A DNA stretch of 64,000 bases from Chloroflexota bacterium (lineage in GTDB: Bacteria; Chloroflexota; UBA11872; VXOZ01). Made by a program: the position numbers and the translations under genes. This document shows positions 24,118 to 62,445 of the stretch, one piece after another. Below the pieces are notes generated by a model. The model worked only from the letters and a program-made list of their open reading frames with translations. It was not told the DNA's origin and ran no database searches. Where the stretch lies: assembly GCA_965219505.1 (NCBI GenBank), contig OZ244775.1:3357569-3421568 (forward strand). Direction: 5' to 3'. Every line of letters starts with the position of its first letter. Position 1 is the stretch's first letter.

Positions 24118-24384
24118 TGTATGTGTTGAGTATTTCGTTGACAAAATCCTTCCCCACTTGACAGTATTGACAATTCATGTCATTCCGAGCGGAGCGTCGA
24201 ACCCTGTTCGCGGAATCTGGAGTCCATGCGGTATATCGCCTAATAGGCTCAGCATCTTAGATTCCGCGCTCCGAGCGACACTTCGCTGCGCTCCGTTCGG
24301 AATGACATGTGTACCAGTCTTGAATAGTACTGCGTTCAGTTTCTCTTGCTTTCAATCCTGTCAACGAATTACCTGACATTTACA
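24118..24384. mobile_element. MITE family A, copy 1 (TGT...ACA ends, internal REP pair)
   Basis: Imperfect ~28-bp TIRs; flanks CGGAAT/GGGAAT; homologous to 36929-37169 and 45686-45927. Confidence 0.8.
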
Positions 24385-24436
24385 GGGAATGACATTTCTT
24401 GTCAAACTTCTCATGCCAAAGCGGGAGCGTATTTAC

Positions 24437-25564
24437 TTAAGATAGTCTTTGCACTGCCCGCTGGAGCGCGGCGGCGTTGCGGCGATGGAAGTCACGGTCA
24501 CGGGCGCTTATACCGGTGATCATGAGGCGCGGCATCAGAGACTCCGCCACCGGGCACCAGCCCCGACGATAGGGGAGCGGCTGCGACTGCGGGGCGCGAC
24601 TCACGCCGAACGCCCCGCCCAAACTAAAGACGGGATGCAGGTACGCCGGGACGCCGACGTAGCCGAAACTGAAGCCTGCATTCTCTTCCGCGCATGCGTC
24701 CTTGAATTCCTCCAACGAGGGGCCGTCCGAATGCGGCGCAAAGGCTGCCACCCAAAGATGGTAGGAGTGAACGCTGTCCGCGCCGGCTTGCTGCGGTCGC
24801 AGCCAGTCGCAGCCATCCACTGCTGCCGCATAGAGCTGGGCACTGGCGCGATCTTCTGCCACGTAGCCGCGCGCGCGACGCATCTGCACGCGCGCCACGG
24901 CGGCCGTGAGTTCGGTCATGCGGTAGTTGTTGGCCATGCGTACGGGCGCCGCGCCAAACGTGATAATGGCACGCATTTGCTCGTTGAGATAGGCGTCATC
25001 GGTCACGGCCACGCCGCCGTCGCCGGTGCTGACGTGCTTCGAGGAATTGAAGCTGAAGACGCCGACTGCGCCGAGCGTGCCCGTGCTGCGCCCACGCCAC
25101 TCGCCAAAGAGGGCGTGCGCACAATCTTCGATTAAGGGCAGCTTGTGGGTGTTTGCTACCGCCAGGATGCCGTCCATGTCCGCCGGTTCGCCCCAGTGGT
25201 GGGTTACGACGATGGCTTTCGTGCGCGGCGTGATGCGTTCTGCCAGCGAGGCGGGGTCCATGTTGTGGGTATGCTCATCCACGTCGGCAAACACGGGCAT
25301 GGCGCCCGTGTACAGGACCGCCAGGCCGCCAAAGAGCACCATCGGATCGCATACCACCTCATCGCCGGCCCCTACGCCAACCGCCAGCAGCGCCGCGTGC
25401 AGCCCACCCATGGCCGCATTGCAGGCGATCCCATGATTCGCTCCCAGTGCCGCCGCAAACTCCTGCTCCAGCGCCGCTACCTCCGTGCCGGCGCCGAGCA
25501 CGCCGGACTCCAGCACCCGCGTAACCGCTGCGATATCTTCGGCGTCGAAAACCTTCCTGCTCAT
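24437..25564 (-). CDS. DegT/DnrJ/EryC1/StrS family aminotransferase
   Basis: GDEV, IEDCAHA, FSFNSSKH-STGDGG, NYRM. Confidence 0.92.
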   Translation of the reverse strand: MSRKVFDAEDIAAVTRVLESGVLGAGTEVAALEQEFAAALGANHGIACNAAMGGLHAALLAVGVGAGDEVVCDPMVLFGGLAVLYTGAMPVFADVDEHTHNMDPASLAERITPRTKAIVVTHHWGEPADMDGILAVANTHKLPLIEDCAHALFGEWRGRSTGTLGAVGVFSFNSSKHVSTGDGGVAVTDDAYLNEQMRAIITFGAAPVRMANNYRMTELTAAVARVQMRRARGYVAEDRASAQLYAAAVDGCDWLRPQQAGADSVHSYHLWVAAFAPHSDGPSLEEFKDACAEENAGFSFGYVGVPAYLHPVFSLGGAFGVSRAPQSQPLPYRRGWCPVAESLMPRLMITGISARDRDFHRRNAAALQRAVQRLS

Positions 25565-26027
25565 CTTATTTGCCCTCTCACGTGCCTCGCCGCAGTTTTT
25601 CGTCCTGGTTTCTTGATGATACTGCATTAAGTGCAGTGCGGTGGTTGCTCCACCGCACGTGGCTTGGTCTACTTTTCAACGTCCCATGCCTCCGTGTCCG
25701 GCATTACGTAGGGGCACGACATGTGGTGCCCCTATACTACCCACGCTCTTGCAGGGACGGATCAATCCTCACCCCCGACCCTCTCCCACTCTTGGAAGGG
25801 GGAGACCAATGCGACACGAGGGGAGAATGTGCGCACCTTCCTCGAGCTATGCTGGACAATTCTAGGAGCTCGACAAACCTAGACTGAGTTCTTCAGCTCA
25901 GAGTCTCGATTTGGCCAAACCCCATTTATAATAGTATTGTGGTTCGATTGTGGATTTAGTTTGTTTGCGGGCAATGCATTCAGTGTTGCTTGCTGAATTC
26001 AGTCGATGATGGAAGAGGGAGTCAACT

Positions 26028-27695
26028 GTGGTCACGAATGAACGAATAATTCTCGACGGGGTCCTGAAACAGCTTCAAGAGGAAGTCGATCCAAACGGAG
26101 ATCCCAGTTCCTTTTTTGAATTCTTTACTGCAGAACAGGTGCTAAAGGACTTTGATCTCTCCTACGATGAGATTGAAACGGGACTAGTAGGTGCCGGAGG
26201 GGATGGTGGGATTGACGGAATCTATCTCCTCATCAACGGTGATCTTGTCCAGGAAGATCCAGATTACGCCCACTTGAGAAAAGATATCACAATTGACCTC
26301 ATCATAATTCAGTCGAAGACTGACGCTGGATTCAAAGAGACTCCAATAGAACGCTTTGTTTCCGTAAGTAACGACATTCTCAATCTTTCAATCGACAGAT
26401 CATCGCTTTCGGTAACATATAACGAGTCCTTAGTGGAAACTATTCATCGATTCCGCACACTTTACCATCAGCTTGCCGCTCGTTTTCCAACGCTGCGACT
26501 CTCTTACGTCTACGCGTCTAAAGGCGTAGATCCGCATCCGAATGTCGAACGTAAAGTTTCAAACCTTGAGGAAGTAGTGAAGAGACACTTTCCGGACTCT
26601 GACTTCTCATTTCAATTCTTGGGAGCACCTGAGCTATTGGGCCTTGCTCGCCGGCGCCCGCAAAGAACCTACAAACTTCAGTTAGCCGAGAATCCCATAT
26701 CTTCAAATGAGCAAGTTGGCTTTGTTTGCTTGGTGGGCCTTTTCGATTTCTTCAAGTTTATTGCAGACGATTCGGGGGCGCTCCAAAGGCAGATTTTCGA
26801 AGCAAATGTGCGTGACTATCAAGGTCGCACACAGGTCAACGACGAAATTCAAGACTCACTACGCACAAAGTCTTCGGAGGACTTTTGGTGGTTGAATAAC
26901 GGAGTCTCGATTCTTGCAACAAAAGCATCTCTAGGTGCCAAGACACTGACCATAGAAGATCCTCAAATAGTTAATGGCCTTCAGACATCAACGGAGGTCT
27001 ACAACTACTGTAGTATCCACGAAAGGGTGGACGATGACAGGAAAATTCTGGTTCGTGTCATTGTTCCCGAAGAAGATGAAAGCCGTGATCGTATCATCAA
27101 AGCAACTAACAGTCAGACTGTTGTGCAGCTATCTTCCTTAAGGGCAACGGACAGGATTCACCGCGATATCGAAGAGTACTTTCGGCCAAATGGGTTGTTT
27201 TACGATCGGCGGAAGAACTACTACAAGAACGAAGGAAAACCGCGAGACAAAATCATTAGTATCCCGTTCTTGGCACAGGCCATCATGGCGATTGTCCTTC
27301 AACGACCAGACAATGCCCGAGCTCGTCCCTCTTCGCTACTGAAGAGAGACGACGACTACAAGAAGGTCTTTAGCCCTTCGTATCCAATTAAACTGTATTT
27401 TGTATGTGCTGAGGTTATGAGGAGAGTTGAGAGAAGTCTAAAGCTACCAAGCCTAGGGGTTGCGTCAGAAGACCGAAACAATCTTAGGTTTTATGTTGCT
27501 ATGCACGTAGTTGGGGGCACGAGCAATTCTTCAAAGCTGCCAAAGGAAATTGCCAACTTCGACGTTGAAGTAGTGGATGAATCGGCAATTCGGAATAGTC
27601 TTGGCGTCATTAGACCAAAGTACATGGAACTTGGTGGAAACGATCAGGTATCCAAAGGCACAGCTCTGCTGGATGCTCTTCGCAGCTGCACATAG
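26028..27695 (+). CDS. AIPR family protein (abortive infection phage resistance)
   Basis: DGGIDG, IIQSK, FEANVRDYQG, FWWLNNGV, QIVNGLQT, ATNSQ; lower GC than neighbours. Confidence 0.9.
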   Translation: MVTNERIILDGVLKQLQEEVDPNGDPSSFFEFFTAEQVLKDFDLSYDEIETGLVGAGGDGGIDGIYLLINGDLVQEDPDYAHLRKDITIDLIIIQSKTDAGFKETPIERFVSVSNDILNLSIDRSSLSVTYNESLVETIHRFRTLYHQLAARFPTLRLSYVYASKGVDPHPNVERKVSNLEEVVKRHFPDSDFSFQFLGAPELLGLARRRPQRTYKLQLAENPISSNEQVGFVCLVGLFDFFKFIADDSGALQRQIFEANVRDYQGRTQVNDEIQDSLRTKSSEDFWWLNNGVSILATKASLGAKTLTIEDPQIVNGLQTSTEVYNYCSIHERVDDDRKILVRVIVPEEDESRDRIIKATNSQTVVQLSSLRATDRIHRDIEEYFRPNGLFYDRRKNYYKNEGKPRDKIISIPFLAQAIMAIVLQRPDNARARPSSLLKRDDDYKKVFSPSYPIKLYFVCAEVMRRVERSLKLPSLGVASEDRNNLRFYVAMHVVGGTSNSSKLPKEIANFDVEVVDESAIRNSLGVIRPKYMELGGNDQVSKGTALLDALRSCT

Positions 27696-28054
27696 AATGT
27701 GTGCTGTGAAACTGGGGAAATGTGCCATACTTTTCCTTCGCTGGTTAGCTGATCTATCCCGGCCAGTTGACGCGGTAAACTTGGTCTTGCCACGCGCGAG
27801 ACCCAGGATTCGACATTCTCTCAATTAGTGCGTATCGTTGCCCACACACATCGCAGGCTATTGGCATACGCGTCGTTTTGAGTAGGTCAGGATCTTATGC
27901 CGGAGTAACATCCAAAGACGCGCCGCATGGCTTGTCCGGCATTCGCCTTGATGAACCAGTCTAGGGAATCACGTTTCCAGCTTTCAAGAAGTGGCAAACG
28001 TTCCGCACGCCGAAAGATATAGCCCACTGCCTGGGGGCACACTCTTGAGTTGCC

Positions 28055-30547: not shown

Positions 30548-30716
30548 CTAGAAGCTATCTCATAAATGGGTTCGATAGCTGATTCGTGCTTCGACAAGCT
30601 CAGCACGAACGGAAAAGGCAAGAATCCGTTCGCCCCCGTATCGTGTACGGGGCAGGCTCTGAGCCTGTCGAAGGGCAGGTCTACACAGAGCGATATATCT
30701 ATGAGACAAGTTCTAG
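30548..30716. mobile_element. MITE family C, copy 1 (CTAG flanks, internal CTTCGACA-GCTCAG REP pair)
   Basis: Ends AAGCTATCTCATA / TATGAGACAAGTT between two CTAG; homologous to 44442-44620. Confidence 0.7.
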
Positions 30717-32455: not shown

Positions 32456-32463
32456 ATAGATGG

Positions 32464-33120: not shown

Positions 33121-33801
33121 ATGCGCAGAAACCTCTGGTTCCGATCAGGCAAACGCTGGCAGCGGCTTGTCTCCAGTCTTACCTATCTTATCCTGATTGG
33201 CCTCTGCATCGGTGTGCTTGCCTGTGGAGGAGACGAAGAGAGCGACTCGGCGTCGGTCGCTACGGCCACGGCCGCCAGAATGGCAGCTACTGCTTCACCT
33301 GTGCTGCTGGCTACGCTCACGGCTCCGGTTAAGGCAACGGCTAGGCCACTTCCTACGCAAACGCCCTCCCCGGCAACTGGGCCCGCCGTTGAGCCTACGC
33401 CAACACCTTCGCCTCCACCCGAACCTACTGCCCCGCCTTTACCAATACCCTCTCCTTCTCCCGTGCCTACTCCTATCCCTTCGCCAATTCCTTCTCCCTC
33501 TCCCGCACCTACTGCCACTCCTGTGCCAATTCCCTCCCCTTCTCCCGTGCCTACCGCTATCCCGTCGCCGATACCTACTCCCTCTCCTCTACCTACTCCC
33601 ATTCCTTCATCAATACCAGAGCCCACCGCAGCACCGCAAAGTGACTTCGACCCGCGACAATATGTTGGCAAAGGGGATGAGTATAACTGCGGAGACTTCG
33701 AGTACCAGTGGCAGGCTCAAGCCGTGCTGGATGCCGACAAATCGGACCCGAACAGACTAGATAGAGACAAAGACGGCACCGCCTGCGAGAGCCTGAAGTA
33801 G
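33121..33801 (+). CDS. Lipoprotein with Pro-rich linker and Excalibur Ca-binding domain
   Basis: Lipobox VLAC, (PS/PT/PI) repeats, NCGDF...[11 protein letters not shown]. Confidence 0.85.
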
Positions 33802-35223: not shown

Positions 35224-36543
35224 CTAACTTGCTTCCTTTCCCTCCTGTACCGTCTTTAGTGCCGCACGCGCGCGGTCGAGGATTTCGCCTACGTCCTCGT
35301 CGGTGTGGGCGAGCGAAAAGTAGAGCTTCTCGCCGGGATTGGTGAGAATGCCGGAGCGGAGCAGTTCGCGGGCGAAAGCGATGCGTTTGGTGTTGTCGGT
35401 TTGCAGGCAATCGCGGTAGCTGCGCAGGGCGCCTTCGCCGAAGAAGACCTGGAGCAACGGCCCGGCGCCGATGGCTTGCAGCGGTTCGCCAAACTCCCTG
35501 CCAAGGGCTTCCAGTCCGGCGCGCACCTGGTCGCCGATCGCGTGGAGTCGGGCAAAGCTCCCCTCTTCTTGCAGCACGCCAAGCGTTGCCAGGCCCGCCA
35601 CTGAGCTCAGAGGATTGCCGCTAAACGTACCGCCCATCCAGACGTAACGCGGCGTGCCTCGGATTGCGGCCGAGACCACTTCCATGATCTCGGCGGGGCC
35701 TGCCACCGCGCCCACCGAGTAGCCGCCGCCCAGCGCCTTGCCCAGCACCGCCAGGTCCGGCTCCACGCCGTAGTATTCCTGCGCGCCGCCCCATGCCAAG
35801 CGGAAGCCGGTGACGATTTCGTCGAATATGAGCAACGCCCCAACCTCGTGGGCCAGATCGCGCATGGCGGCCAGGAAGCCCGGATCCGGGTTGAGGGCGC
35901 GCTGGAGCGGCTCCATGATGATCGCCGCCAGGTCGTCGCCGTGCTGGTGCACCAACTCGCGGGTGAGCGCGAGATTGTTAAACTCGGAGACCAGCACCTG
36001 CTCCTGTACCTGCGGCGGGATGCCGCTGCTGTCCGGTATGCCGTGGGGGTAATCGCTGGTGTGCGGCGGCACCGTGCTCATGGTGGCGTAGTCGTTGCCG
36101 CCGTGGAGCGCCCCTTCGAACTTGAGCACCTTGTTGCGGCCGGTATAGGCGCGGGCAATGCGAATCGCGTAGAATGTCGCCTCGGTGCCGGTGCTGACGA
36201 AGCGAATCTGCTCGGCGCACGGCACGGCATCCACCACCACTTCTGCCAGTCTAATCGCCGGTTCATTGAGGAGGAAGTAGGTCGCGCCCTGCGCCACCTG
36301 CGCTTGCACTGCCGCCACAACCGCCGGATGGGCGTGCCCGATGACCACCGGCCCCGATCCCAGGATGCAGTCGATGTACTCCCTGCCGGTCATGTCCCAC
36401 ACGTGGCTGCCGCGCCCGTGGGTGACCACGATTTGATACTCGTCCGGCAGACGCCACAACCCCGATGACCCTCCCGGAAAAACCTGCCGGCTGCTCGCTA
36501 AGAGTTCTTGCTGCAACGTGCTCGCCTCAGACACAGACTTCAT
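35224..36543 (-). CDS. Class III aminotransferase (glutamate-1-semialdehyde aminomutase-like)
   Basis: STGTEAT, KFEGALHG, FDEIVTGFR, GKALGGG, GTFSGNP. Confidence 0.9.
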   Translation of the reverse strand: MKSVSEASTLQQELLASSRQVFPGGSSGLWRLPDEYQIVVTHGRGSHVWDMTGREYIDCILGSGPVVIGHAHPAVVAAVQAQVAQGATYFLLNEPAIRLAEVVVDAVPCAEQIRFVSTGTEATFYAIRIARAYTGRNKVLKFEGALHGGNDYATMSTVPPHTSDYPHGIPDSSGIPPQVQEQVLVSEFNNLALTRELVHQHGDDLAAIIMEPLQRALNPDPGFLAAMRDLAHEVGALLIFDEIVTGFRLAWGGAQEYYGVEPDLAVLGKALGGGYSVGAVAGPAEIMEVVSAAIRGTPRYVWMGGTFSGNPLSSVAGLATLGVLQEEGSFARLHAIGDQVRAGLEALGREFGEPLQAIGAGPLLQVFFGEGALRSYRDCLQTDNTKRIAFARELLRSGILTNPGEKLYFSLAHTDEDVGEILDRARAALKTVQEGKEAS

Positions 36544-36598
36544 GCGCTCTCATCCCTCATGTTCAGGTGTTTGTTGGCCAAGAGTGAAGGTTGCTTAA

Positions 36599-36770
36599 GA
36601 GGGTGTGTGAAAAGAGTATCCCTTCATCCTTCGACAGGCTCAGGACGAACGGACACCGCCTTTTCTGGCGGATTCTTCTATCTTCCGTTCGCGGACTCTT
36701 GTTTCTTCCGTTCGTGGTGAGCGTGTCGAACCATGAACGGCGATTGGCTGAGAACTTCTCACACACCCTC
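36599..36770. mobile_element. MITE family D (IS5-like ends, TAA target duplication, internal REP pair)
   Basis: TIR GAGGGTGTGTGAAAAG / CTTCTCACACACCCTC (15/16); TAA on both sides. Confidence 0.8.
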
Positions 36771-36928
36771 TAAGTGTTCAGCCCGATTGGATACATTTGC
36801 CGGTCGCGCCACGGCACTGTCCGTATACTATCACTGTGCGGAACTTAGGGGAGCTTTGGCCGCTTCTTCCTTCTGAAGAGTCCGCTGGCATCTCCTCGTC
36901 GAACAGCTTCCTCTTGCGGAGTCATTCC

Positions 36929-37169
36929 TGTAGATGTCAGGTAATTCGTTGACAGATTTGGTAGAAGAAACATGGGAGAAAATCTCTGTGCTTGCCTGCA
37001 TGCATGTCATTCCGAACGGAGCGCAGCGGAGTGAGGAATCTAGAGTACTAAGCCGTATGGACTATGCTCGACATTGATCCTAGATTCCTCGCTGCGCTCG
37101 GAATGACATGCACCGTCAACTCTTCAGAATGGAAAGCGAATTCTGTCAACGAATTACCTGACACCTACA
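36929..37169. mobile_element. MITE family A, copy 2
   Basis: 28-bp TIR TGTAGATGTCAGGTAATTCGTTGACAGA (1 mismatch); 5-bp duplication ATTCC. Confidence 0.88.
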
Positions 37170-37286
37170 ATTCCGATTGAGGCGATTTGCCCAACAACAC
37201 GGAGCGAAAGCGCGGGATCCTACTATGGCCGCAGGTTGCAAACCTGCGCTACCCGATCTCATCTTGATCGATACGAGAATATTGGA

Positions 37287-39476
37287 CTACTCCGCCGCAT
37301 CACCCTTTACGTAGCGATCGAACCAGCCGATGATGCGGTCCCAGCAGTCTACCGCGTTATCCACCGACCATTCACGCACCACATGCCCTTCGCCATGATA
37401 CCGTGCGAGCATGGCCCGCTTGCCAAGCTTGAGCAAGCCGCCATACATTTCCTCCGCTTGCGCCATAAAAGGCTCATCCGCGGTCCCACAGGTGAACAGC
37501 ACCGGTGATGTCACGCGATCGCAGAAGAAAACCGGCGAATTGTCCACCCATAGTTCTCTGGATTCCCAAAGACCCTTGCGCAATTGGAATATATGGCCGG
37601 TCACCCCATCGTATTGCGTCACCTCGTTGCCATCAACGTGCAGACCAAAGCTGATGAGATTTGTAATTGGCGCGCTAACGACCGCAGCGCGGAAGCGGTC
37701 GGTGCGGGTCACCACACAACTCGCGCTATACCCGCCCCCACTGTGCCCAATCACCCCTGCTCGATCCGGGTCCGCGTATCCCGCCGCAGCCGCAGCGTCG
37801 AGGGCGTTCAAGGCCAGTGTCGTCATCTCGTCCGCGACGTTCGGCTGGCGGCGCGGCATGCTTGGCGCAACGACCAGATAGCCCCGGGCTGCCAACACAT
37901 GAAGATCAATACAGCCGATCTCCCAGTCAAATTCATTCAGATAGCCGGTAGTGCCCAAATCGGGATACACAACGACAATCGCCGGATAGCGCTCGCCTGC
38001 CTGATACCCCGGCGGGAGCAGTACCACCCCCTGCAAGGCTTCACCGTCCACGTCGGGAAACTCGAGCAACCGAGCGGCTCCCGCTGACACGCCTTCCAGC
38101 GCCGGATTGAGGCGCGTGATCCGCTCCTCTTCGCCGGTCGCAATCTCGATCTGAAAGAGGTCGGGCGGCTGCGTGGCGGACTCTATAATCCCTATGATTC
38201 TGTCCCGGTTACTATCTCCGTAGAGCGTCAGATCCAGCAGGTGCCGCTGCTGTTCCGGCAGCACCACTTCCGGTTGACCGTAGCCGACCCTATAAATTCC
38301 TTGTTTCCTCGTCTGTCGGTGGTATGTCATGACGAGGAAGGTGCCGGGCCGACCGCCGTCGTTCACCGTGTTGTTGCCGAGTGTACTGATGAATCCCCAA
38401 ACTCTGTGATTCTCAAGTTCTCCGGTTATGTTTTCGATAGCGCCGGTGGAGACGGAAAAGGCGTATATCTCCCTTTCGGCCCAACAGTAGACGGTCTCTC
38501 CGTCCGCAGACCAGAGCGGCGGCGGATACGGTTCCTCGTTGCCAACGTCAATCTCGCTGCCGTCGTGGCGCACACGTTGCGAGCCATCGAGCGACACCAA
38601 GACCAGCCGCCCCGGTTCATCATCGCTGTAGGTGGTGTACGCAATGGCGTCTCCGGCAGGCGACCAGGTGAAGGCGCCCCACGACAGATTTGCGCTCCGG
38701 ACGAGAACCTCTCGTCGCGAGCCGTCTGCGGCAAACAGATGTAAGTCAAACTGGTGCCAATAGCTGGAAGCGCCGTGTTCCCGCTCTTCCGCCAAGCACA
38801 TGGCGGCAACGTAGCGCCCATCAGGCGAGGGCGCATAGCCAAAGGGAAATATCTCCGTCCCGAGGCGGCGCGCTGACCCGGTTTCAATGTCGATGACGCC
38901 GATGTCGCCCCGGTCGTTGTCGAACCAGCGCCACCCTTCGTCTTCGGAACGCTGCGACGTAGCGGTTGCCGGAGATTCCCAAACATCCCGGCCGCTCCCT
39001 ATTTCTTCCTCCTCATCCGATGCCGGCGGGCTCCAACCAGGCGCTTGCAGTTTCGCGACAATACGTCTGCTATCGGGAAGCCAATGCAACAGTTGAAACT
39101 CAAAGTTGATTATGCAAGGATCGGCGGATGCAAGCTGCATCTCGCCGGTCTTGCGATTCCAGAGCCAGACCTGCAACACACCATTGCGATCGGACAAGAA
39201 GGCCAGCCACTGCCCATCGGGCGACCAGCGCGGTCCCCAGCCGGTGGTCAGAGCTTTCGCTTTACCGTCAGATAGATCTGTAATCCAAAGTTCAACGCCC
39301 TGCACACCTCTGGGTGCTCCCGTTGCATGCGTTCTCGTGGGTGACTTTGGAATCAAGCGCTTAGCTGGCGCAACCCCGTAGGCCACTAGGTTGCCGTCAG
39401 GAGAGAGTGCTACCGGCGAATGGGTATCAATCTTCGCCCGAGATCGGAAGGCCTCAACGTCTGCGCGGCTACTCAT
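37287..39476 (-). CDS. S9 family peptidase (beta-propeller + alpha/beta hydrolase)
   Basis: WSPDG repeats, GHSGGG nucleophile, D, EGH. Confidence 0.9.
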   Translation of the reverse strand: MSSRADVEAFRSRAKIDTHSPVALSPDGNLVAYGVAPAKRLIPKSPTRTHATGAPRGVQGVELWITDLSDGKAKALTTGWGPRWSPDGQWLAFLSDRNGVLQVWLWNRKTGEMQLASADPCIINFEFQLLHWLPDSRRIVAKLQAPGWSPPASDEEEEIGSGRDVWESPATATSQRSEDEGWRWFDNDRGDIGVIDIETGSARRLGTEIFPFGYAPSPDGRYVAAMCLAEEREHGASSYWHQFDLHLFAADGSRREVLVRSANLSWGAFTWSPAGDAIAYTTYSDDEPGRLVLVSLDGSQRVRHDGSEIDVGNEEPYPPPLWSADGETVYCWAEREIYAFSVSTGAIENITGELENHRVWGFISTLGNNTVNDGGRPGTFLVMTYHRQTRKQGIYRVGYGQPEVVLPEQQRHLLDLTLYGDSNRDRIIGIIESATQPPDLFQIEIATGEEERITRLNPALEGVSAGAARLLEFPDVDGEALQGVVLLPPGYQAGERYPAIVVVYPDLGTTGYLNEFDWEIGCIDLHVLAARGYLVVAPSMPRRQPNVADEMTTLALNALDAAAAAGYADPDRAGVIGHSGGGYSASCVVTRTDRFRAAVVSAPITNLISFGLHVDGNEVTQYDGVTGHIFQLRKGLWESRELWVDNSPVFFCDRVTSPVLFTCGTADEPFMAQAEEMYGGLLKLGKRAMLARYHGEGHVVREWSVDNAVDCWDRIIGWFDRYVKGDAAE

Positions 39477-39534
39477 GGGAATACTCCTTCTCTGTCTCTA
39501 ATGAGCTCAGGGCAAGATCAGCATCGACCTTGTC

Positions 39535-40578
39535 CTACGCGAGCACCTCATCGGCGTGGGCGAAGAGCGACGGGATGCCGCCGGTGTGCACGAAGACGAC
39601 GCGTTCGTCTTGACTGAAAGAACCGTTGCGCACGAGATCAATGAGGCCGGACATCGACTTGCCCGTGTAGGTGAGGTCGAGCAGGATGCCTTCCGTGCGC
39701 GCGACGGTGCGCACGGCTTCCCTACCCGCAGCGGTGGTTACTCCGTGTCCGGCGCCGAAATACTCTTCCCGTACGTCTACTTCATCTGGCGTCAAGGCGC
39801 AGGGGATACCATAGTATTGGGCGGCGCTTTGCGACAGGGCGGCAATGCGTTCGCGCTGCGGGGGATTCTGCGGACGGATGGAGATGCCGGTGACGCGATA
39901 GGGCAAGCCCAATGCCTTCACCGTGGCGGCAATTCCGGTATGCGTAGAACCGGAGCCGGAGGTTACAACAACCCTTGTTTGCTGTTTCGGCAGGTCCTGC
40001 AATTGCCCGTGCAACTCCAGCATGCCGTTCAGATAGCCCGCCACCGACTTTACGGCCAGTGCGGGGTATTTATTCGTGAAGCGATAGGGCCGCCTGCCCT
40101 GGGCTTTGAGCGACTCCACGCGCTCGTCGATGATGGTCTGCACGCCGACGTCGTCAGCATCCGGCGCCACTTCCACGTGCGCGCCAAAAAGGTGGTCGAG
40201 GAGCAGGTTGCCCTGCACGTCTGCCCGGTGGCGCAATGCTCCCAACACTAGATAGCATTCCAGCCCCAGTTTCGCCGCGGCCGCCGCGGTCTGGCGGCAC
40301 TGGTTCGACTGCGGGTACGCGCCGGTAATGATACAGTCCGCACCCTGCGCGATCGCTTCGCCGAAGAGAAATTCGAGGTTGCGAGTCTTGTTGCCGCCCA
40401 GCGCCAGACCGGTCAGGTCGTCGCGTTTGAAATAGATGTCGGGGCCGCCCAGACTTTTTGTAAGGCGCGGGCAATAGTCGAGCGGCGTGGGGAGATTCGC
40501 CAAGTGCGCCCGGGGCAGGGCATCAAGGGCCTGTTGAAAGGTCTCTACTGCAATCGTCGTCTGGTCTTGAATTGCCAT
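39535..40578 (-). CDS. D-cysteine desulfhydrase / ACC deaminase family
   Basis: PTP, KRDDLTG-GGNKTRNLE, QSN, GSGST, D-TYTGK, HTGG. Confidence 0.92.
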   Translation of the reverse strand: MAIQDQTTIAVETFQQALDALPRAHLANLPTPLDYCPRLTKSLGGPDIYFKRDDLTGLALGGNKTRNLEFLFGEAIAQGADCIITGAYPQSNQCRQTAAAAAKLGLECYLVLGALRHRADVQGNLLLDHLFGAHVEVAPDADDVGVQTIIDERVESLKAQGRRPYRFTNKYPALAVKSVAGYLNGMLELHGQLQDLPKQQTRVVVTSGSGSTHTGIAATVKALGLPYRVTGISIRPQNPPQRERIAALSQSAAQYYGIPCALTPDEVDVREEYFGAGHGVTTAAGREAVRTVARTEGILLDLTYTGKSMSGLIDLVRNGSFSQDERVVFVHTGGIPSLFAHADEVLA

Positions 40579-40977
40579 GCGCTGCTCCCTTCATGGACAG
40601 TGTGCAACCGAATTGTCTTTATGTACTCTCACTAAGCCAATCTCCACTTGACAGTACGGCCCCTTGTGAGAGATGCACTCACACAGTACCGAAACAGTAG
40701 TGGGGGTACACATTCCAACGCAAGCCGATCGCACCGACTAGGGAGCAGGTGAGGGATCACGGTACGCAAAGAGAAGCTGGATGGCGTGAGCGACACTCCG
40801 TCACAACTTCGAATCCAGCCCGATAGCGGCAAGCTCTTAGCAAACTCAGGGCCAATGTCCTGGTGAGGATATCGTACCGGAGGAGATCTGGATTCCGGCT
40901 TTCGCCGGAATGACGGCACTCCCGGCGCATACTTCGCTTGAAAGCCCTAGCGTATCTGCCTAAACAAATTCTTAATT

Positions 40978-44296: not shown

Positions 44297-44441
44297 GGCT
44301 GCCTCACTTTCTCAAGTTGACGGACTCTATCGTTTGCCAATGCTCTTGACGTCGCGTCTTTCCCTAGAGAGAACTTTGCATGACCCACGCCGGAATCGCA
44401 AGAGTAACTCCTTCCCCGTAGACTTACCCCCTCTCCCTGGG

Positions 44442-44620
44442 AGAGGCTGTCTCATAAGTCGACTCGATAAGCAAAATCGTGCTTCGACACGGGCTTCGCG
44501 CAGCGCTCAGCACGAACGGGATTTGCCTTTTCCGTTCGCCCCCCTATCGAGTACGGGGCAGGCTCTGAGCCTGTCGAAGGGCAAGTCTACACTGAGCAAT
44601 GCACTTTTGAGACAAGCATC
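44442..44620. mobile_element. MITE family C, copy 2, inserted in an R1 palindrome
   Basis: Ends AGAGGCTGTCTCATAAGT / ACTTTTGAGACAAGCATC; TGGG on both sides; R1 halves flank it. Confidence 0.75.
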
Positions 44621-44733
44621 TGGGGAGAGGGTCGGGGTGAGGGGGGAATCTTCGCCAATTCTACCCAATCCCGCCCGTTTGGCAGAGTTACCGGGAGGTC
44701 TTCATCAAGTGCAATGCGTTCCGCAACGGTCGC

Positions 44734-45528: not shown

Positions 45529-45685
45529 GTTCTGATTCCTTATCTACCGTTTCACGCCAGGTCCTCGGCAAACATTCGTTTGCATGCTCTTAGAAGCAGT
45601 GTAGCAGAACCCGCGTGGCCGGAGGTCTTCGGAATTAGTAGAGCTAAACTTGATAGCTTCGCAGGGCTGCGTTCTGTGTCATTCC

Positions 45686-45927
45686 TGTAAGTGTTGACTA
45701 TTTCGTTGACAGAATCCTCTACCCAATTGGCGGCGTAGAGAGATCATGTCATTCCTCGCTCCGCTCGGAATCTAGGGTCCATGTAACATGTCGCCCGATA
45801 GGCTCAAGAGCTTAGATTCCTCTCTTCGCTGCGCTACGATCGGAATGACATTGGTACTAGTCATGTCTTGTGTTGCGTTCAGTTGCTCTTGTTCTGAAAT
45901 CTGTCAACGAATTACCTGACACTTACA
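45686..45927. mobile_element. MITE family A, copy 3
   Basis: TGTAAGTG...CACTTACA; flanked by TGTCATTCC / AGAATGACA. Confidence 0.82.
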
Positions 45928-46069
45928 AGAATGACAGATTGAGGAACTGCTTCAGACGTGAGTACGTTCGGTGCTTCGCATACCTGCACTATGTAAGTCC
46001 AAACCCACCAATCCCGGAGGTCTTTTCACCTATGCCCGTCAGCGCCAAGCACTCTGGTCTGCATCAAAC

Positions 46070-54018: not shown

Positions 54019-54133
54019 TAGCAATTGGCGGGACAGTGCGGAAACCAACTGCGTCGCTGCCGTCATTCCGGCGCAAGCCAGAATCCAGCGCATGCGGCTG
54101 GCGAGGGACGGAGCTGCCACCGTTGGCCGATTG

Positions 54134-56195: not shown

Positions 56196-56436
56196 GTTTC
56201 TCCTTGGGACCAGTGGGTCGGCTATTTGTACCTGTGAAGCCAACTGAGTGATTCCGCCAACCGGCGGGACGAGACTGAAAGTTCAAAATTCGCCCGCACG
56301 CCCCGTTCAAGTACGGGAATTGAGGGTGAATCCCTCTCAATCTACCCCATTTTCACCGAGCTGGCACATTTGCGTATGGGTTCTACAGGCAGAAAAGCCA
56401 GGATAAGCAGGAATCCCCTCACCCCGACCCTCTCCC

Positions 56437-56724
56437 TGTACAGACTGGGGACATAGGTAACAGTTGTTCGGGGACATGGGTTACACATTTTACTGATTGA
56501 CACCTACGGGAGCTTTGGGTTGGGCCGGGATCGAGACGTAACTTGCGACACAACGCGCTCATGTTCAGCTAATCAGCTTGTGCCAGAGAAACAAACCGTG
56601 TGCACAAGGGTATTGAGTGGATCTAGCTTTCAAGGCAAGGACATTGCATACTACGAAAACTCCCAGGTTCTATGGTGTAACCAATGTGCCCGAACATGTG
56701 TAACCCATGTACCCGGTCTATACA
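56437..56724 (+). mobile_element. MITE family B, copy 1 (TGT...ACA, reiterated subterminal sites) inserted in R1
   Basis: ~50-bp imperfect TIR with two GGG-ACATGGGTTACA-like units per end; CTCCC duplicated. Confidence 0.85.
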
Positions 56725-56873
56725 CTCCCAGGGAGAGGGAGTAATTCTCGCACTTTCGGCCTAAGTTAGACAAAGCCTGCCCCGTACCCGGTACGGGGGT
56801 GAGGATGAATCCTCGACAATACAACCCAATCGTGCTCGCCTGGTCGAGTTAGGTAAGGGTCTCCTTAACAACC

Positions 56874-57082
56874 CCCGCACGTCCCGCAAAGCGCATGTGA
56901 CGAAGGGTTACCCACATTCTACATACCGCCCGCCAAAAGAGAAGCCCGCCTAGGAATTCGCGACGGAACATGAGTACACGCTTGCTGGAGGATGAATCTG
57001 GGCCAAGGAATAGGCCCAGTCTCACATTGCCTTCCCTGGGTCTTCCAGCAAGCCAGTCAGCCTCACTCTTGCGGGACGCGGG
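56874..57082. ncRNA. Candidate structured RNA of unknown class
   Basis: Nested helices CGTCCCGCAA/TTGCGGGACG, GCTTGCTGGAGGA/TCTTCCAGCAAGC, CTGGGCC/GGCCCAG. Confidence 0.45.
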
Positions 57083-57243
57083 CTCAGTCCGCGAAATCTG
57101 CGACAGACCAATAGCCTGCGTAATCAACTAGGATGTTTGAGAGAAAAGACAAGGAGGAGAGTGACGATACCGTCACTCTCCTCCTTGCGGAGTGAGAGGG
57201 TAAGAGACAGCAGGTGATATTCTGCTTAGCGTGCGCCGGACGC

Positions 57244-57630: not shown

Positions 57631-57804
57631 GGTTCATACCTCCTTCACCGCACTCTGTCCGCCTCATGGACGGCGCCGGTACCGTGCCACGTTGTGGGCT
57701 TGGTGGGGCTCAATGTAACTCCTTTGTTGCATTCAAGCGTTCCCACCGGATCGCAACGAGTTGTTTCTGCCAGCATACCACCGGATATCGAGACTGTGAA
57801 GCGA

Positions 57805-57854
57805 TTCTAAGGAACTTCTTAGGATATTCGTCAATTATTAAGGATATTCTAAGA
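57805..57854. promoter_or_regulatory. 11-bp-period direct repeats (OmpR/PhoB-type operator)
   Basis: CTAAGG 57807 / CTTAGG 57818; TTAAGG 57838 / CTAAGA 57849. Confidence 0.5.
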
Positions 57855-58132
57855 ATCAAGCTTCTATTCTAATAACTATAGTCTTTATAGTAAAGGACGC
57901 TGGGCAATGATTCAAGAGATTCTCTTAGGTTCCCACTAAAAGGGTTGCAGTCTTAATGAAGAAGGCTTAAGAAAAGCGACGTTCGGCAGTGCGCGAATTT
58001 CGCACACTCTGGTCCTGCATTCCCTGACAGGAACACAAAGCTGCATTAGCAGTGCACTATCAGCAATGCCGTTTGGTGGCGCAGAACGCAACATGGCACA
58101 ATGACGTACACAAGCTAAGGAGATCTCCTTCA

Positions 58133-59191
58133 ATGAAGACGCATAGACTTGCCGTTGCCGGTCTGGGTTCCTTTACGCAACGTGTCCTGCTGCCCGGCCT
58201 CCTTAGTTGTGACCGCGTACACGTGGTTGGCGCCTATACGCGGAGTCTCGAGCGTGCGGCAGAGATGCAGTCGCAGTTCACGGAATTGCCGATCCACACA
58301 GACTACTCGCGGATGTTGGATGTTGCCGAGCCGGATATTGTATTGGTCGGCACCCCAAATGCCGCTCACGTGCCCATGACGATTGAGGCCGCCCAACGGG
58401 GCTGCCACGTCATCTGCGAGAAACCCCTTGCGCCAACGCTGCAGGGGGCCGAGGCGATGGCGGCTACCGCAGACAAGGCCGGTGTTCGCACGGCGGTCAA
58501 CTTTACCTTTCGTTCAATTGGCGCCGCGCGCTTCGCTAAGCACCTACTAGACGAAGGGCGCGTGGGGCGAATTATACATGTCACCCTATTGTATTTGCAA
58601 GACATTCGTCACGGAGCCGACCGTCCCAAAGTATGGCGCATGGATGGTGAGGTAGCCGGAGCCGGCGCGCTCGGCGACGTGGGCAGCCATGCTATCGATC
58701 TGGTGCGGTGGTGGTGCGGCGAGTTTGCTGCTGTTTCGGGTCACGTCTCCACACACAACGTGGAGCGGCATGGCGGTACGGTTACCAACGACGATACCGC
58801 AGTCTTTCTCGCTCGGCTTGAGTCGGGCCTACCGGTGACGTTGCACATCAGTCAGGCGGCGGCCGGACGCTCCAACTCGCTGCGCGTGGAAGTCTATGGC
58901 GAGAAAGGAAGCTTGATCTTCACGGCAGAGCGAGGCACGGAGCCTGCCGTCCAAGTCGCCAGTCCCGGTGAGATTGGCTTTTCGCAAGTGCCGCTGCCGG
59001 AGAATTTCTCGGTAGCGTATGAGGCTTTCCCCGCATATCACGCCGGGCGGCTGGTGGGCACCATTCTCGGCACTGACTTCGTGGCAGACTTTGCCGACGG
59101 CTTGGCGGCACAGCGCGTCATCGATGCGGTGCAACGAGCTGCGGCGAATAGCATTTGGGTACCGCTTCCACGCGTCGAAAAGACAACGTAG
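58133..59191 (+). CDS. Gfo/Idh/MocA family oxidoreductase
   Basis: AGLG, GTPN-H, CEKP, GALGDVGSHAID. Confidence 0.92.
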   Translation: MKTHRLAVAGLGSFTQRVLLPGLLSCDRVHVVGAYTRSLERAAEMQSQFTELPIHTDYSRMLDVAEPDIVLVGTPNAAHVPMTIEAAQRGCHVICEKPLAPTLQGAEAMAATADKAGVRTAVNFTFRSIGAARFAKHLLDEGRVGRIIHVTLLYLQDIRHGADRPKVWRMDGEVAGAGALGDVGSHAIDLVRWWCGEFAAVSGHVSTHNVERHGGTVTNDDTAVFLARLESGLPVTLHISQAAAGRSNSLRVEVYGEKGSLIFTAERGTEPAVQVASPGEIGFSQVPLPENFSVAYEAFPAYHAGRLVGTILGTDFVADFADGLAAQRVIDAVQRAAANSIWVPLPRVEKTT

Positions 59192-59256
59192 GCTGCTGCA
59201 TCGGTGAGGCTTCAGTCTCGGACGGTGGAGTGCCTTTGGGAGATACGCTCGCGGCA

Positions 59257-60381
59257 CTAATTGGGCCCATCGCTCTGCGGCGGCGCATCCTCATCTCCAT
59301 CATGTAATGGCTCATCCTCTGTCTCCAATTGAGCGATGAGCCACGGCACGAGCAGGCGCATTACGAGCACCTGCATCGCTGCCACGAGGGGCACGGCAAT
59401 CACGATGCCAAGTATTCCATACAGCACACCGCCTGCCAGGACACCAACCATTACGAGGATGGGGTGCAAGCCGACAGCGCGTTCCATCACCTTTGGAACA
59501 AGAATGTTGTTCTCCAACTGTTGAATGATTACGTACAGAATTGCCGTGGCTAACGCGATCCAGGGGGATTTGAGGGCGAGGGCCACGAGAATCGCCGGTA
59601 TGGCTCCAAGAAACGGCCCGATAATGGGGATAATTTCCATGAGACTGGCCCACGTCGCCAGGGCAAGCGGATACGGTACGCCCAGCGCAAAGAGGCCGAC
59701 AAACGTCACTGTCCCGATGAAGACCATCAGGATTACTTGGCCGCGCACCCACCCGCCGGCGCGTTGCGAAAGTTCGGCGGCCAGGCTGCGCACCGCCTCC
59801 GCGCGCTTTGGCGGCAAGAGCGCGATCACGGAACGATTCAGCCGTTCCGTGGCGCTCATCCAGAAAAAGCCAATCACGAGCACAGAGACTACGCCGAACA
59901 AGAACCCCAGAACCTGAAACGGCACCGCAGCCAAGGTGCCGATGAGCTGCGTGATTGAAGTGGTGAGAGTCGTGCCAAGTTCCCGTACTTGGTCGTCGAA
60001 TCCCAAGTCTACCGAAATCTGGTAGAGTCTCGGGACTTCATCCCGCGCCCAGTCGGTGAGTTCCAATGTTATGTCGTCAACTTCGCGCACCTGCACGACG
60101 AGCGGAGGGACGAGAATCAAGCCCAGTCCCGTCAGTACCAACGCCAAGAGGAGATAGACGATCATTACGGCGACGCCGCGGGGGATCTTCCAGGTCTGCA
60201 GCTTGTTGGCGATCGGTCGAATCGACTCCGCCAAGAGGATGCCGAGGAACAGCAGCACCAGAACGCTGACGATGCGCGTGGCAATGATGCCGATGAAAAG
60301 CACAAACAAAACCACGCCCGCACCGAGCAGAAAGCTCATAGGCGTGATTCGGATTTCGCGTGATTCGGGAAGATCGTCCAT
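59257..60381 (-). CDS. AI-2E family transporter
   Basis: W-RGQ, IPIIGP, QQLENN-LVPK, GLHP, G-LG-AVP. Confidence 0.9.
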   Translation of the reverse strand: MDDLPESREIRITPMSFLLGAGVVLFVLFIGIIATRIVSVLVLLFLGILLAESIRPIANKLQTWKIPRGVAVMIVYLLLALVLTGLGLILVPPLVVQVREVDDITLELTDWARDEVPRLYQISVDLGFDDQVRELGTTLTTSITQLIGTLAAVPFQVLGFLFGVVSVLVIGFFWMSATERLNRSVIALLPPKRAEAVRSLAAELSQRAGGWVRGQVILMVFIGTVTFVGLFALGVPYPLALATWASLMEIIPIIGPFLGAIPAILVALALKSPWIALATAILYVIIQQLENNILVPKVMERAVGLHPILVMVGVLAGGVLYGILGIVIAVPLVAAMQVLVMRLLVPWLIAQLETEDEPLHDGDEDAPPQSDGPN

Positions 60382-60941
60382 AGCAGTATGGGATTCAGCA
60401 TAGCATGCCGCCAACCTATTGGCAAAGCGGCTCGCCCCTGCCTGTGGGATACTCCGACGAGATCTGCTCGCGTCGGTTGCAGCGCTCGCCCTTGGCGTCT
60501 CGGTGGACCGCGACTTGTCGTGAGTCTGTCGGTCCACGTACTGACTCCAAAATAGTCTGAATTCAGCGGCGCCTTTCTTTCGAGGGTGCCCCCTCGCTGG
60601 CGCCGATCGTTCGGAGAACGGTAAGGTGGCAAGTATAATACATATGTGCTGGTGTTGAAGTATTATATAAAAGCCAACTTTCGTATGTAGTGTTGATATG
60701 AATAGCTCCAACCGTGCGTTAAAGACGGTCAGCGTGAAACGCAGGAGGGCCGGCGCGAACGGTACCCCAAGCGTAGCAGCCCTCTTCCTGCTGGCGCGGA
60801 AGCTCTGCATGGCTAACCAAGCAGTCGCTGTAGACGGCGCCGCAACTCTCGCCGAGGGTACACGGCGAGTGCTTTGCTATTCGCTCTCGATGCGAGACAG
60901 GTCCGGCACACGTGCCGCGCCCTCTACCGGAGGTTGAGACG

Positions 60942-61559
60942 GTGATCGACGAAGAGCAACAGCCAATCCCGGGACAAGGCACGCGTGAGTCTGCCGGCTC
61001 GCTCCAATGGCTGGAACGTAACCGCTTGAGCATTGTGCTCTTGCTGGTCGTGCTCACGGCTGTGGCATTGGGTTTGTATGCACTGCAGTTGCGCAATACC
61101 GCGCCGATTACGGTGACGCCGGTGCAGACGGAGTTGCGCGATATCAAGGTATACGTTACGGGCGCAGTAGCACAGCCGGGTGTCTACGCCGCGAGCTCCG
61201 GCGAGCGCGTGGGAGACGTGGTGGCGCGGGCGGGGGGATTCACGGCTGCGGCCGATCCCGTAGCCATCAATCTGGCGCGGCGCATGCGGGACGAAATGCA
61301 CATTCATGTCCCTGCCAAGGGGGATGCCGCACAAGCGGGCGCGTCTGACACGGGGCCGTCAACGCTCAGGCCGATCAACATCAATACGGCGACACAAAAG
61401 GAACTGGAAGCGCTGCCTGGCATCGGTGAGGTGACTGCCCGCAGAATCCTCGCCGCACGGGAAGCCGACGGTCCGTTTGCAAACGTGGACGATCTGCGCC
61501 GCGCGGGCGTGCGCGTCTCCGTAATCGAGCAGATTCGCAGTCTGGTCGTCGCCGAATAG
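60942..61559 (+). CDS. comEA: ComEA family DNA-binding protein (TM, SLBB, HhH)
   Basis: VYVTGAV-PGVY, AGG, INLA, ININTAT-ELEALPGIG; GGAGG RBS before GTG. Confidence 0.92.
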   Translation: MIDEEQQPIPGQGTRESAGSLQWLERNRLSIVLLLVVLTAVALGLYALQLRNTAPITVTPVQTELRDIKVYVTGAVAQPGVYAASSGERVGDVVARAGGFTAAADPVAINLARRMRDEMHIHVPAKGDAAQAGASDTGPSTLRPININTATQKELEALPGIGEVTARRILAAREADGPFANVDDLRRAGVRVSVIEQIRSLVVAE

Positions 61560-61937
61560 AGGTTCCACGGTTCTACTTTCTGCCCCGGGGTGCTAGGCTG
61601 CGCTGCGCATTTGCAGACAAATAGCAAGCAACGGTGGCGAACCGCTAAGCCAACCTAGGCAAGTATGACCGGCGTGGGTTTCTCCAAGGGCAGAGATTCT
61701 ATCCTGTAGCCTACAGACCCTGCGAGCAAGCAATTCCTGAAATGGCACAGGTTTCAAACCTGTGCTACCCTCTCCAATCAAGGAGACCTTTGCACAGCAC
61801 GGGGCAGTGGGCGAGAAGACCCGCTCTCCCGGGAAACCCATGCCTAGCGCGGGTCGGTAGGCGAGAAGACTTTTCCTCCCGGGAGACCCTTGCATTAACC
61901 AGGCATGCAGGCCAGAAGACTCCCTCTCCCTGGGGAG

Positions 61938-62224
61938 TGTATAGACCGGGTTGATGGGTAACACTTGTTCGGGTTGATAGGTTACACCATCGAATATGGG
62001 AGTTTTCGTTGTATGCAGTGTCCATGCCTTGGAAGTTAGACCCACTCAATACCCTTGTGGATACGGTTTTTCCCCTGGCACCAGCTCACGAACTGAACAT
62101 GGGCATGTCGTGGTGCCTGGAACGTCTATTTCTCTGCCCAACCCAAAGCGCCCGAAGGTGTCAATCAGTACAATGTGTAACCTATCAACCCGAACACCTG
62201 TTACCTATCAGCCCAGTCTGTACA
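61938..62224 (-). mobile_element. MITE family B, copy 2 (inverted relative to copy 1) inserted in R1
   Basis: TGTATAGACCGGG...CCCAGTCTGTACA; GGGGAG duplicated; interior alignable to 56437-56724. Confidence 0.85.
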
Positions 62225-62445
62225 GGGGAGAGGGCCGGGGTGAGGGGAAATCTTCACTTTTCCAGCCAAATTCCGCGCCCTCGTCAGAGTTTCGCAAGGC
62301 TTGACCCGCATCCCGAGACGGGGGTCTCAAGCACGGCAGCGCGCCCCGAAAAGAAGCGTACAAACTGGCGAAGTGCCGAGATCAATATGCCTGAGATCCG
62401 AAAGCGAACCCCAGAGAAGAATAGTGGAGAAACGAGTGTCTAACC

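Follow-up and report, generated by a model that had tools for sequence, protein, structure and literature searches.

Elements in the window and their setting

[quoted passage not shown] All eight had been noticed in an original prediction made from the sequence of the window; each was found, with slightly corrected coordinates, and each has further copies in the genome. They are intergenic and lie among ordinary genes, which code for class-V and DegT aminotransferases, the product of uvrB, a class-III aminotransferase, an S9 peptidase, a CN-hydrolase, a D-glutamate cyclase, a HAD hydrolase, a ComEA-like protein and an oxidoreductase. With lengths of 161-288 bp (against a size criterion of ~120-290 bp), terminal inverted repeats and target duplications of 5 bp (families A and B), 4-5 bp (C2), TA (C1) or TWA (D), they are transposable elements of the miniature inverted-repeat kind (MITEs), and their genome-wide copy numbers are 14 (A), 12 (B), 35 (C2), 10 (C1) and 7 (D). 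We consider it highly probable that this genome hosts three insertion sequences (IS) specialised on REPs, together with their transposase-less miniature derivatives.

Six of the eight elements lie in REP-type palindromes, A1-A3 at GTCATTCC/GGAATGAC and B1, B2 and C2 within CCCTCTCC..GGAGAGGG, and six carry an inverted REP pair, which is a GTCATTCCGAGCG..CGCTCGGAATGAC doublet in family A and a TTCGACARGCTCAG doublet in families C and D; both counts agree with the original prediction. The prediction had also described the four families as unrelated and as belonging to several DDE families. A search for autonomous IS with the same ends recovered parents for A, B and C2, and these parents instead place A and B with two IS481-type IS whose transposases are homologous, and C with an IS1182-family IS. 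Orthologous sites were compared in two sister genomes, G007 and G008, which are collinear with the window at ~80-87% identity.

Families A and B and their IS481-type parents

The A1 element (24118..24384, plus strand) has TGTA..TACA ends with inverted repeats of ~28 bp, an inverted GTCATTCCGAGCG / CGTTCGGAATGAC doublet at 24179-24306 and a GGAAT duplication at 24113-24117 and 24386-24390, with an extra G at 24385. A2 (36929..37169, minus strand) lies in the opposite orientation, with its REP doublet at 37006-37107 and an ATTCC duplication, within GTCATTCC, at 36924-36928 and 37170-37174. The flanks of A3 (45686..45927, plus strand), TGTCATTCC / AGAATGACA, had been read as direct repeats and turned out to be inverted; the inverted repeat runs 9 nt past the TGT..ACA ends into these flanks (window 45677-45936), and does so in G007 as well, where A3 occupies the same site. 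In G008 it is missing along with its flanks. This arrangement could possibly have arisen when two copies recombined, or through an insertion of an unusual kind.

BLAST searches of the whole genome recovered 14 full or nearly full family-A MITEs, whose interior consists of an extended inverted doublet CATGTCATTCCGAGCG...CGCTCGGAATGACATG, and one further copy that a nested IS has interrupted. The same ends are found on a 1060-bp element, here termed IS-A, which is present five times and shares only ~28-44 terminal bases with these MITEs. The 336-aa transposase of IS-A contains rve-type integrase domains and matches the IS481 family best (NF033577, 205 bits), followed by IS3 (82.5 bits), and IS-A is likely, though not certain, to belong to the IS481 family. 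An exact GTCATTC/GAATGAC borders 18 of the 19 family-A insertions, and a version with one mismatch borders the remaining one, with ATTCC or GGAAT duplicated; in comparison, 364 of 60,000 intergenic control positions show the motif. The octamer GTCATTCC occurs 358 times in the genome, against 97 occurrences expected from base composition; 159 of these lie in a short hairpin (GTCATTCC-N8-12-GGAAT) and 37 in a long form. Family-A MITEs contain 19 of the 37 long-form GTCATTCCGAGCG-type sites, and 151 of the 159 short hairpins lie outside MITEs. One IS-A copy (genome 174746-175805) is inserted in the cargo REP of a family-A MITE.

Unoccupied family-A targets are also present in the window, namely a short GTCATTCC-class hairpin (GTCATTCCCGCGCAGGCGGGAATC) at 23937..23960 on the plus strand and two further free hairpins of this class at 54062-54085 and 40891-40914. 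The regions of A1, of A2 and of the family-D element D1 are rearranged in the sister genomes, and no clean empty site was found for any of the three; G007 has another A-type copy near the A1 site, its flanks being different, and lacks the 3-kb stretch with A2 and D1. This stretch (window 36513-39535) comprises D1, A2, one REP of a type described below for the neighbourhood of a transposase gene, and a gene for a 729-aa S9 peptidase / PD40 protein; G007 has 448 bp in its place.

Family B comprises twelve MITEs (four of them B2-identical, two more 99% identical) and one 1265-bp IS (IS-B), which matches B2 at 98-100% identity over the outermost 51-53 bp. The MITEs have 50-bp ends with an internal repeat and no REP cargo. 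B1 (56437..56724, minus strand) interrupts a CCCCTCACCCCGACCCTCTCCC..GGGAGAGGG hairpin in its tail-proximal arm, and CTCCC is duplicated at 56432-56436 and 56725-56729; B2 (61938..62224, plus strand), one of four identical genome copies, is flanked by GGGGAG at 61932-61937 and 62225-62230. All 13 family-B elements abut CCCTCTCC-loop-GGAGAGGG, often followed by the tail NCGGGGTGAGGGG, and both arms are intact in 11 of them. Insertion is invariably into the tail-proximal arm, with GGGAG duplicated, and the element itself may lie either way round; this fixed position in either orientation argues for sequence-specific recognition of the target. The right arm and tail GGGAGAGGGNCGGGGTGAGGGG (window 62225-62247, and likewise in all tailed hairpins) contain four G-runs of at least 3, on paper a candidate G-quadruplex motif next to the hairpin.

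The IS-B transposase (397 aa) scores 284 bits against NF033577, for which the cut-off is 224, and has LZ_Tnp_IS481, HTH and rve domains. It is homologous to that of IS-A (34% identity over 210 residues). The TGTA..TACA ends and 5-bp duplications of both elements fit the TGT..ACA termini and short duplications that characterise the IS481 family in ISfinder.

Families C and F and the IS1182-family element

Family C, which had been treated as one family, separates into two subfamilies that differ in their targets. Among its 45 genomic copies, 35 are of the C2 type, with ends GAGGCTGTCTCATAAGT..TTTTGAGACA, and all of these lie in a hairpin loop, 32 with both arms and 3 with one; 9 of the 10 C1 copies are flanked by TA within YTAR, outside the hairpin, and one lies in it. 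In the window, C1 (30551..30713, plus strand; ends GAAGCTATCTCATAAAT..TGAGACAAGTTC) has its TA flanks (30549-30550, 30714-15) inside CTAG, is not in a REP and carries a TTCGACAAGCTCAG / CTGAGCCTGTCGAA doublet. C2 (44443..44619, plus strand; ends GAGGCTGTCTCA..TGAGACA) splits a CCCTCTCC-CTGG-GGAGAGGG hairpin at the loop, whose CTGG is duplicated at 44437-44440 and 44620-44623, and also has a REP doublet inside. Copies of family C differ by the gain or loss of REP-type blocks, namely CCCCGTATCGTGTACGGGGCAGGCT, GGCTTCGCGAAGCC and CCTTCGAC repeats. We found no clean empty site for C1 in the sister genomes, in which the region is rearranged, and no IS with the ends of C1 in this genome.

A genome search for DDE_Tnp_1 genes led to the IS that shares the C2 target. 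It is present in seven copies of ~1.64 kb with ends GAGGGTGTCTCAAAATGG..TGAGACAGCCTC, and all seven are in hairpin loops. Its 538-aa transposase belongs to the IS1182 family (NF033551, 372.9 bits against a cut-off of 270) and contains DDE_Tnp_1_6 and DUF772 domains. In all copies (genome C1:462128-463795 and six others) the transposase frame has no stop inside the element and runs through the right end into the hairpin; the open frames accordingly extend to 527-615 aa and differ in their C-termini.

The same loops are used by a sixth family, F, which has six copies of 214 bp with ends as in C2 and no REP cargo; three of these have both hairpin arms and two have one. When C2, F and the IS1182-family IS are taken together (n=49), the longest exact duplication of the flanks is 4 bp in 27 elements and 5 bp in 5. 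The duplicated loop tetranucleotides vary, with CTGG in 11 cases, CCAG in 8, TTGG in 3, CCAA in 3 and others including TCAA and TTAT, and because the duplicated loops differ among copies they point to independent insertions into pre-existing hairpins.

Families D and E

D1 (36599..36770, plus strand; ends GAGGGTGTGTGAAAAG..CTTCTCACACACCCTC) carries a TTCGACAGGCTCAG doublet and is flanked by TAA at 36596-36598 and 36771-36773, outside any REP. Family D has seven copies with ends GAGGGTGTGTGAAAAG, of which four show an exact duplication of TAA or TTA and none is in a REP. Its end is of an IS1182/IS5-like type and matches that of the IS1182-family IS at 13 of 16 bases. A parent was looked for as two D ends in inverted orientation, spaced as in an IS; this genome yielded none, and neither did 17 genomes of the genus searched for a 17-nt pattern of the end. 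The fifth family, E, is a MITE family of two copies with the same class of cargo REP as C and D. Units of this class are also enclosed by low-copy MITE-like elements with D-like ends (TAAGAGGGTGTTTCC, TAAGAGCCTGTTTAC, AGAGGTTGTTTGCAAAG), at genome C1:2805614-2805732, 2848349-2848491, 305722-305903, 602180-602341 and 3061864-3061994, with a TAA duplication in at least the first two.

Occupied and empty target hairpins

The repeats involved are short palindromes with the abundance of REPs. Short GTCATTCC hairpins number 159, and the class with the core TTCGACAAGCTCAG (at most 2 mismatches), which is the cargo of C and D, comprises 358 units, a control giving 21; a relaxed pattern for the CCCTCTCC..GGAGAGGG hairpin finds 116 unsplit copies in the genome and 7 in a reversed-genome control. 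By a crude measure based on stop-to-stop frames of at least 150 codons, which are not gene calls, 54-59% of the units lie wholly outside such frames, as against 14% of the genome. A further ~62 hairpins are split, by 13 family-B elements, 35 C2, 5 F, 7 IS1182-family IS, 1 C1 and 1 IS5-family IS, so that ~62 of ~178, or roughly 35%, are occupied. A position falls between two hairpin arms by chance in 55 of 200,000 random draws and in 72 of 60,000 draws outside long reading frames (intergenic). The REP flanks of A, B and C2 are thus enriched far beyond chance over random and intergenic positions, as the original prediction would have it. The window also has an unoccupied target of B, C2 and the IS1182-family IS, a free CCCTCTCC-TGGG-GGAGAGGG hairpin at 6090..6109. 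The IS5-family IS just mentioned is 1.2 kb long, with ends GAGAYCTTTGCGTAAC, and one of its two copies (genome C1:3432413-3433630) lies between CCCTCTCC..GGAGAGGG arms.

Unsplit hairpins are present at the orthologous sites of three of the window's elements. In G008 the repeat at the B1 site, CCCCTCACCCCGGCCCTCTCCCCAGGGAGAGGGAGTAATC, is unsplit, and the corresponding stretch of G007 contains a CCCTCTCC..GGAGAGGG hairpin whose loop is occupied by a C-type MITE flanked by duplicated CCAG. The B2 site is an exact unsplit CCCTCTCCCTGGGGAGAGGGTTGGGGTGAGGGG in G008, and in G007 it is unsplit but degraded, with mismatches in both arms. At the C2 site G007 has an unsplit CCCTCTCC-TCGG-TGAGAGGG with tail and one mismatch, and G008 has lost most of the hairpin. 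It had been reasoned that the association would fail if orthologous loci never showed an intact REP at the empty site; here they do. These sites also bear on a different reading of B and C2, in which the hairpin halves beside them are the outer parts of longer elements with long terminal inverted repeats, and not targets. The flanks are indeed inverted repeats of each other, as the ends of such elements would be. This reading is nevertheless almost certainly wrong, being already contradicted by the unsplit hairpins, three of them exact and two with arm mismatches, at the orthologous B1, B2 and C2 sites. The 116 unsplit hairpins of the genome also speak against it, as do the presence of four types of element (B, C2, F and the IS1182-family IS) between the same arms and the sequence between arm and element, which is a direct duplication that varies by copy.

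Conservation of the targets in relatives

The targets of all three IS are conserved in relatives from other genomes, among them metagenome-assembled genomes (MAGs) of Chloroflexota and Dehalococcoidia. For the IS1182-family IS, 59 of the 76 loci scored (out of 79) have palindromic flanks, as against 609 of 20,000 control positions, and the duplication is 4 bp in 31 of the 76. Distant relatives from Caldilineaceae (loci L089-L095) occupy another long palindrome, CTGCCCCCCAAAAGCTGGTCCAGG / CTGGACCAGCTTTTGGGGGGCAG, or adjoin one half of it, a change of hairpin sequence that fits structure-guided targeting. Among the relatives of IS-B, 60 of 80 loci were scored; both hairpin arms are present at 48, one at 5 and none at 7, and a 5-bp duplication is found in 32. 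Those from Desulfobaccales (L178) and the gammaproteobacterial Thiodiazotropha (L186) are flanked to the left and right by sequence resembling CCCTCTCCC/GGGAGAGGG, and three others (L175, L176, L181) show a single flank; the specialisation of the family-B lineage on REPs would, from these flanks, appear to extend beyond Chloroflexota. Within the genus, among the matches listed, 15 of 16 genomes have at least a partial match to B1. Of the 79 loci with relatives of IS-A 71 were scored, and 52 of these lie at GTCATTY/RAATGAC; a 5-bp duplication is present in 55 of the 71 and is GGAAT or ATTCC in 38.

A model for REP-directed insertion

The proposal of three REP-specialist IS with miniature derivatives builds on what was observed of the elements' anatomy and copy numbers, of where they insert and what they duplicate, of empty sites and of targets conserved in relatives. 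In the model that we favour, IS-A would recognise the octamer GTCATTCC, which is common to two classes of hairpin repeat, and insert with a 5-bp ATTCC/GGAAT duplication, while the family-A MITEs, with their ~28-bp IS-A ends, would be moved in trans. IS-B would recognise CCCTCTCC-loop-GGAGAGGG(NCGGGGTGAGGGG), inserting in the arm beside the G-rich tail and duplicating GGGAG, and family-B MITEs would move by virtue of the 50-bp IS-B ends that they carry. The IS1182-family IS would insert in the loop of the hairpin used by IS-B and duplicate the 4-5-nt loop whatever its sequence; C2 and the cargo-less F, with which it has the terminal ~12-15 bp and the target in common, would be its probable MITEs, and C1 and D would be related-looking MITEs that use TA or TWA sites instead. 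Recognition would accordingly be sequence-specific in A and B and guided by structure in C. The REP doublets in A, C and D would be passengers, copied at each transposition and thereby adding to the number of REPs.

Several observations weigh against this model or parts of it. Mobilisation of the MITEs in trans is suggested by shared ends and shared targets, and C2 has just ~12-15 terminal bases in common with the IS1182-family IS of this genome, so that the true driver of C2 may be an IS more closely related to it. The 205 bits of IS-A fall short of the curated NCBIfam cut-off for IS481, 224. A3 has no direct duplication, its flanks being inverted, and an exact duplication is absent from 16 of the 49 C2, F and IS1182-family elements as well as from 36 of the 76 scored IS1182-family relatives and 20 of the 60 scored IS-B relatives; we attribute the missing duplications, as a conjecture, to mutation or to recombination between copies. 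In 17 of the 76 IS1182-family loci, which represent more distant relatives, a 4-bp duplication occurs without a palindrome, suggesting that the preference for hairpins is specific to a clade. Finally, REP cargo is found in four of the six MITE families (A, C, D and E), seemingly too often for plain chance.

REP cargo and its spread

Of the 358 units of the TTCGACAAGCTCAG class, 91 (25%) lie in C, D or E MITEs, as do 36 of the 73 inverted doublets. Among the 37 free doublets one is a C1 copy missed by the search pattern; their spacers are unrelated, which argues that free doublets are not decayed copies of C or D. The core doublet is at the same position in aligned C1 and C2 copies and was hence multiplied by transposition. 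In a de novo search for inverted ends around the 253 clusters of this REP, only ~40 had an inverted repeat scoring at least 11, so that most units do not lie in MITEs.

The original prediction had given as known that REPs spread by means of REP-associated tyrosine transposases (RAYTs). The genome contains a single RAYT-like gene (174 aa, genome ~2020057-2020581; locus L003 1423-1947, minus strand), which scores 80 bits against NF047646, exactly the cut-off, and a PF01797 search gave one sub-threshold match only. On both sides it is flanked by arrays of GGTAGCGCAGGTTTGCAACCTGCG, a fourth REP class (GCAGGTT-N3-AACCTGC) with 77 copies. With these flanks, the gene was rejected as the driver of the three REP classes considered here, and that part of the prediction does not hold for them; no cognate RAYT flanked by the REPs involved here was found, as a REPIN-RAYT system would have. 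One unit of GGTAGCGCAGGTTTGCAACCTGCG lies in the window, at 37231-37247.

MITEs amplify some REPs, yet the REPs are mostly independent of MITEs. This bears on the most far-reaching claim of the original prediction, a reciprocal loop in which MITEs disperse REPs and land in them. Its components are borne out in so far as REPs are landing sites of A, B and C2 and doublets are multiplied as cargo; a closed loop is not, as it closes for A only. In its strict form, with driverless REPs depending on MITEs for dispersal, MITEs depending on REPs as safe sites and each amplifying the other, we regard the loop as improbable. It would account for three REP classes without a visible driver in a genome whose sole RAYT-like gene is accompanied by another REP, and the cargo shares are sizeable (19 of the 37 long GTCATTCCGAGCG-type sites, and the quarter of units and half of doublets of the TTCGACAAGCTCAG class given above); the IS-A copy at genome 174746, inside the cargo REP of a family-A MITE, is a case of the nesting that it calls for. 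However, the REP class carried by C and D is targeted by no identified IS, the target hairpin of B and C is carried by no MITE, and B and F use that hairpin without any REP cargo. Three quarters of the cargo-class units and nearly all of the short GTCATTCC hairpins (151/159) are outside MITEs, the 37 free doublets have unrelated spacers, and nesting is rare, with 1 of 19 family-A insertions in a MITE-borne cargo REP and, as an indirect sign, 2 of 71 IS-A relatives with another family-A end within 200 nt. The loop would thus be at most a side effect, and the data hint weakly at a dependence of REPs on MITEs for their spread.

The traffic could also have run the other way, with REP doublets entering MITEs secondarily and the MITEs acting as sinks of REPs and not as vehicles. 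The gain and loss of REP-type blocks among C copies would then indicate that turnover in the style of REPs goes on inside the cargo. We think this very unlikely, given that the shared position of the core doublet in aligned C1 and C2 copies, together with the TTCGAC/GCTCAG-type cargo of the one C-type copy examined in G007, argues that the doublet predates amplification of the family. Returning to the model of REP-specialist IS with passenger doublets, a bolder extension of it, speculative and rather doubtful in our view, is that several REP classes for which the genome has no dedicated tyrosine transposase are maintained by a network that links them to DDE-type elements, each serving the other as niche and vehicle and the two co-evolving instead of being separate parasites. 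MITEs built around REP doublets would in that case provide a second, transposase-driven route of REP multiplication, and two IS481 lineages and one IS1182 lineage would have specialised on REPs as harmless landing pads.

Further observations

DNA folding gave z values of -2.8 to -11.1 for the cargo-bearing MITEs, -4.0 and -7.1 for the cargo-less B elements and -1.7 for F; folding was discarded as a means of separating elements with and without cargo, B also folding well. The window has 0 Rfam matches at the gathering threshold. The window also contains, at 17077-17104, 18479-18506 and 25708-25735, a fifth class of REP that is not involved with MITEs; its unit, GTAGGGGCACGACATGTCGTGCCCCTAC, is an almost perfect palindrome of 28 nt and begins with GTAG. 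At 33352-33603 an open reading frame (ORF) contains five to six tandem 42-bp units, with a proline-/threonine-rich translation.

Relation to known systems

Insertion specific to REPs lets an IS multiply without hitting genes, and may explain how dozens of copies are tolerated in a 3.5-Mb genome. For annotation, REPs and MITEs of this kind explain many spurious ORFs and differences in intergenic length among Chloroflexota MAGs.

The original prediction could match its reciprocal loop to no described system. The targeting of REPs by IS, which it gave as known for some IS, is already described from other bacteria. REPs have been summarised as IS targets (Delihas 2011, PMC3184786), and the available part of an earlier survey (Tobes & Pareja 2006, PMC1525189) reports REP targeting in five IS families (IS3, IS110, IS4, IS256 and IS5), with IS1397, ISKpn1, ISPsy8, IS621, ISPpu9/10 and ISRm22 as examples; IS1397, ISKpn1 and IS621 are named there as experimentally supported, and specificity is argued to come from the transposase itself. 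As in the present genome, those IS occupy a fixed position in the REP hairpins of their species and have many copies, all in REPs. In the text of the survey IS481, IS1182 and MITE have 0 mentions each, whereas in the present genome the REP-targeting lineages are two of IS481 type and one of the IS1182 family, each accompanied by abundant MITEs, and, unlike the IS described there, three types of element use one hairpin.

The inverted REP pair of a REPIN (REP doublet forming a hairpin), as presented in the accessible text of two accounts of REPIN-RAYT systems (Bertels & Rainey 2011, PMC3116915; Nunvar et al. 2010, PMC2817692), has the anatomy of the A, C and D cargo. Unlike REPINs, the doublets here lie between terminal inverted repeats of DDE type, with target duplications outside these, and the RAYT present is associated with another REP class. 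In the literature searched we found no paper that names both the IS481 family and REPs, and no title or abstract opening describing MITEs with REP doublets as cargo.

The nearest precedent for the loop-directed elements is IS1272 / TnSha1 of staphylococci, an IS1182-family element that, according to the part of the report available (Furi et al. 2016, PMC4923244), has hairpin targets with little requirement for primary sequence; on palindromic targets in the IS1182 family the same report refers to Siguier et al. 2015. According to its description, IS1272 makes a blunt cut in the stem, removes part of the hairpin and leaves no duplication, whereas here insertion is in the loop, the hairpin remains whole and the 4-5-nt loop is duplicated. 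REP-targeting IS as a kind are therefore known, and the IS481-type and IS1182-type members are new; they add two groups to the REP-targeting families, have kept their choice of target over long evolutionary distances and apply two contrasting modes of recognition to one hairpin, a fixed position in the arm and a loop of any sequence.

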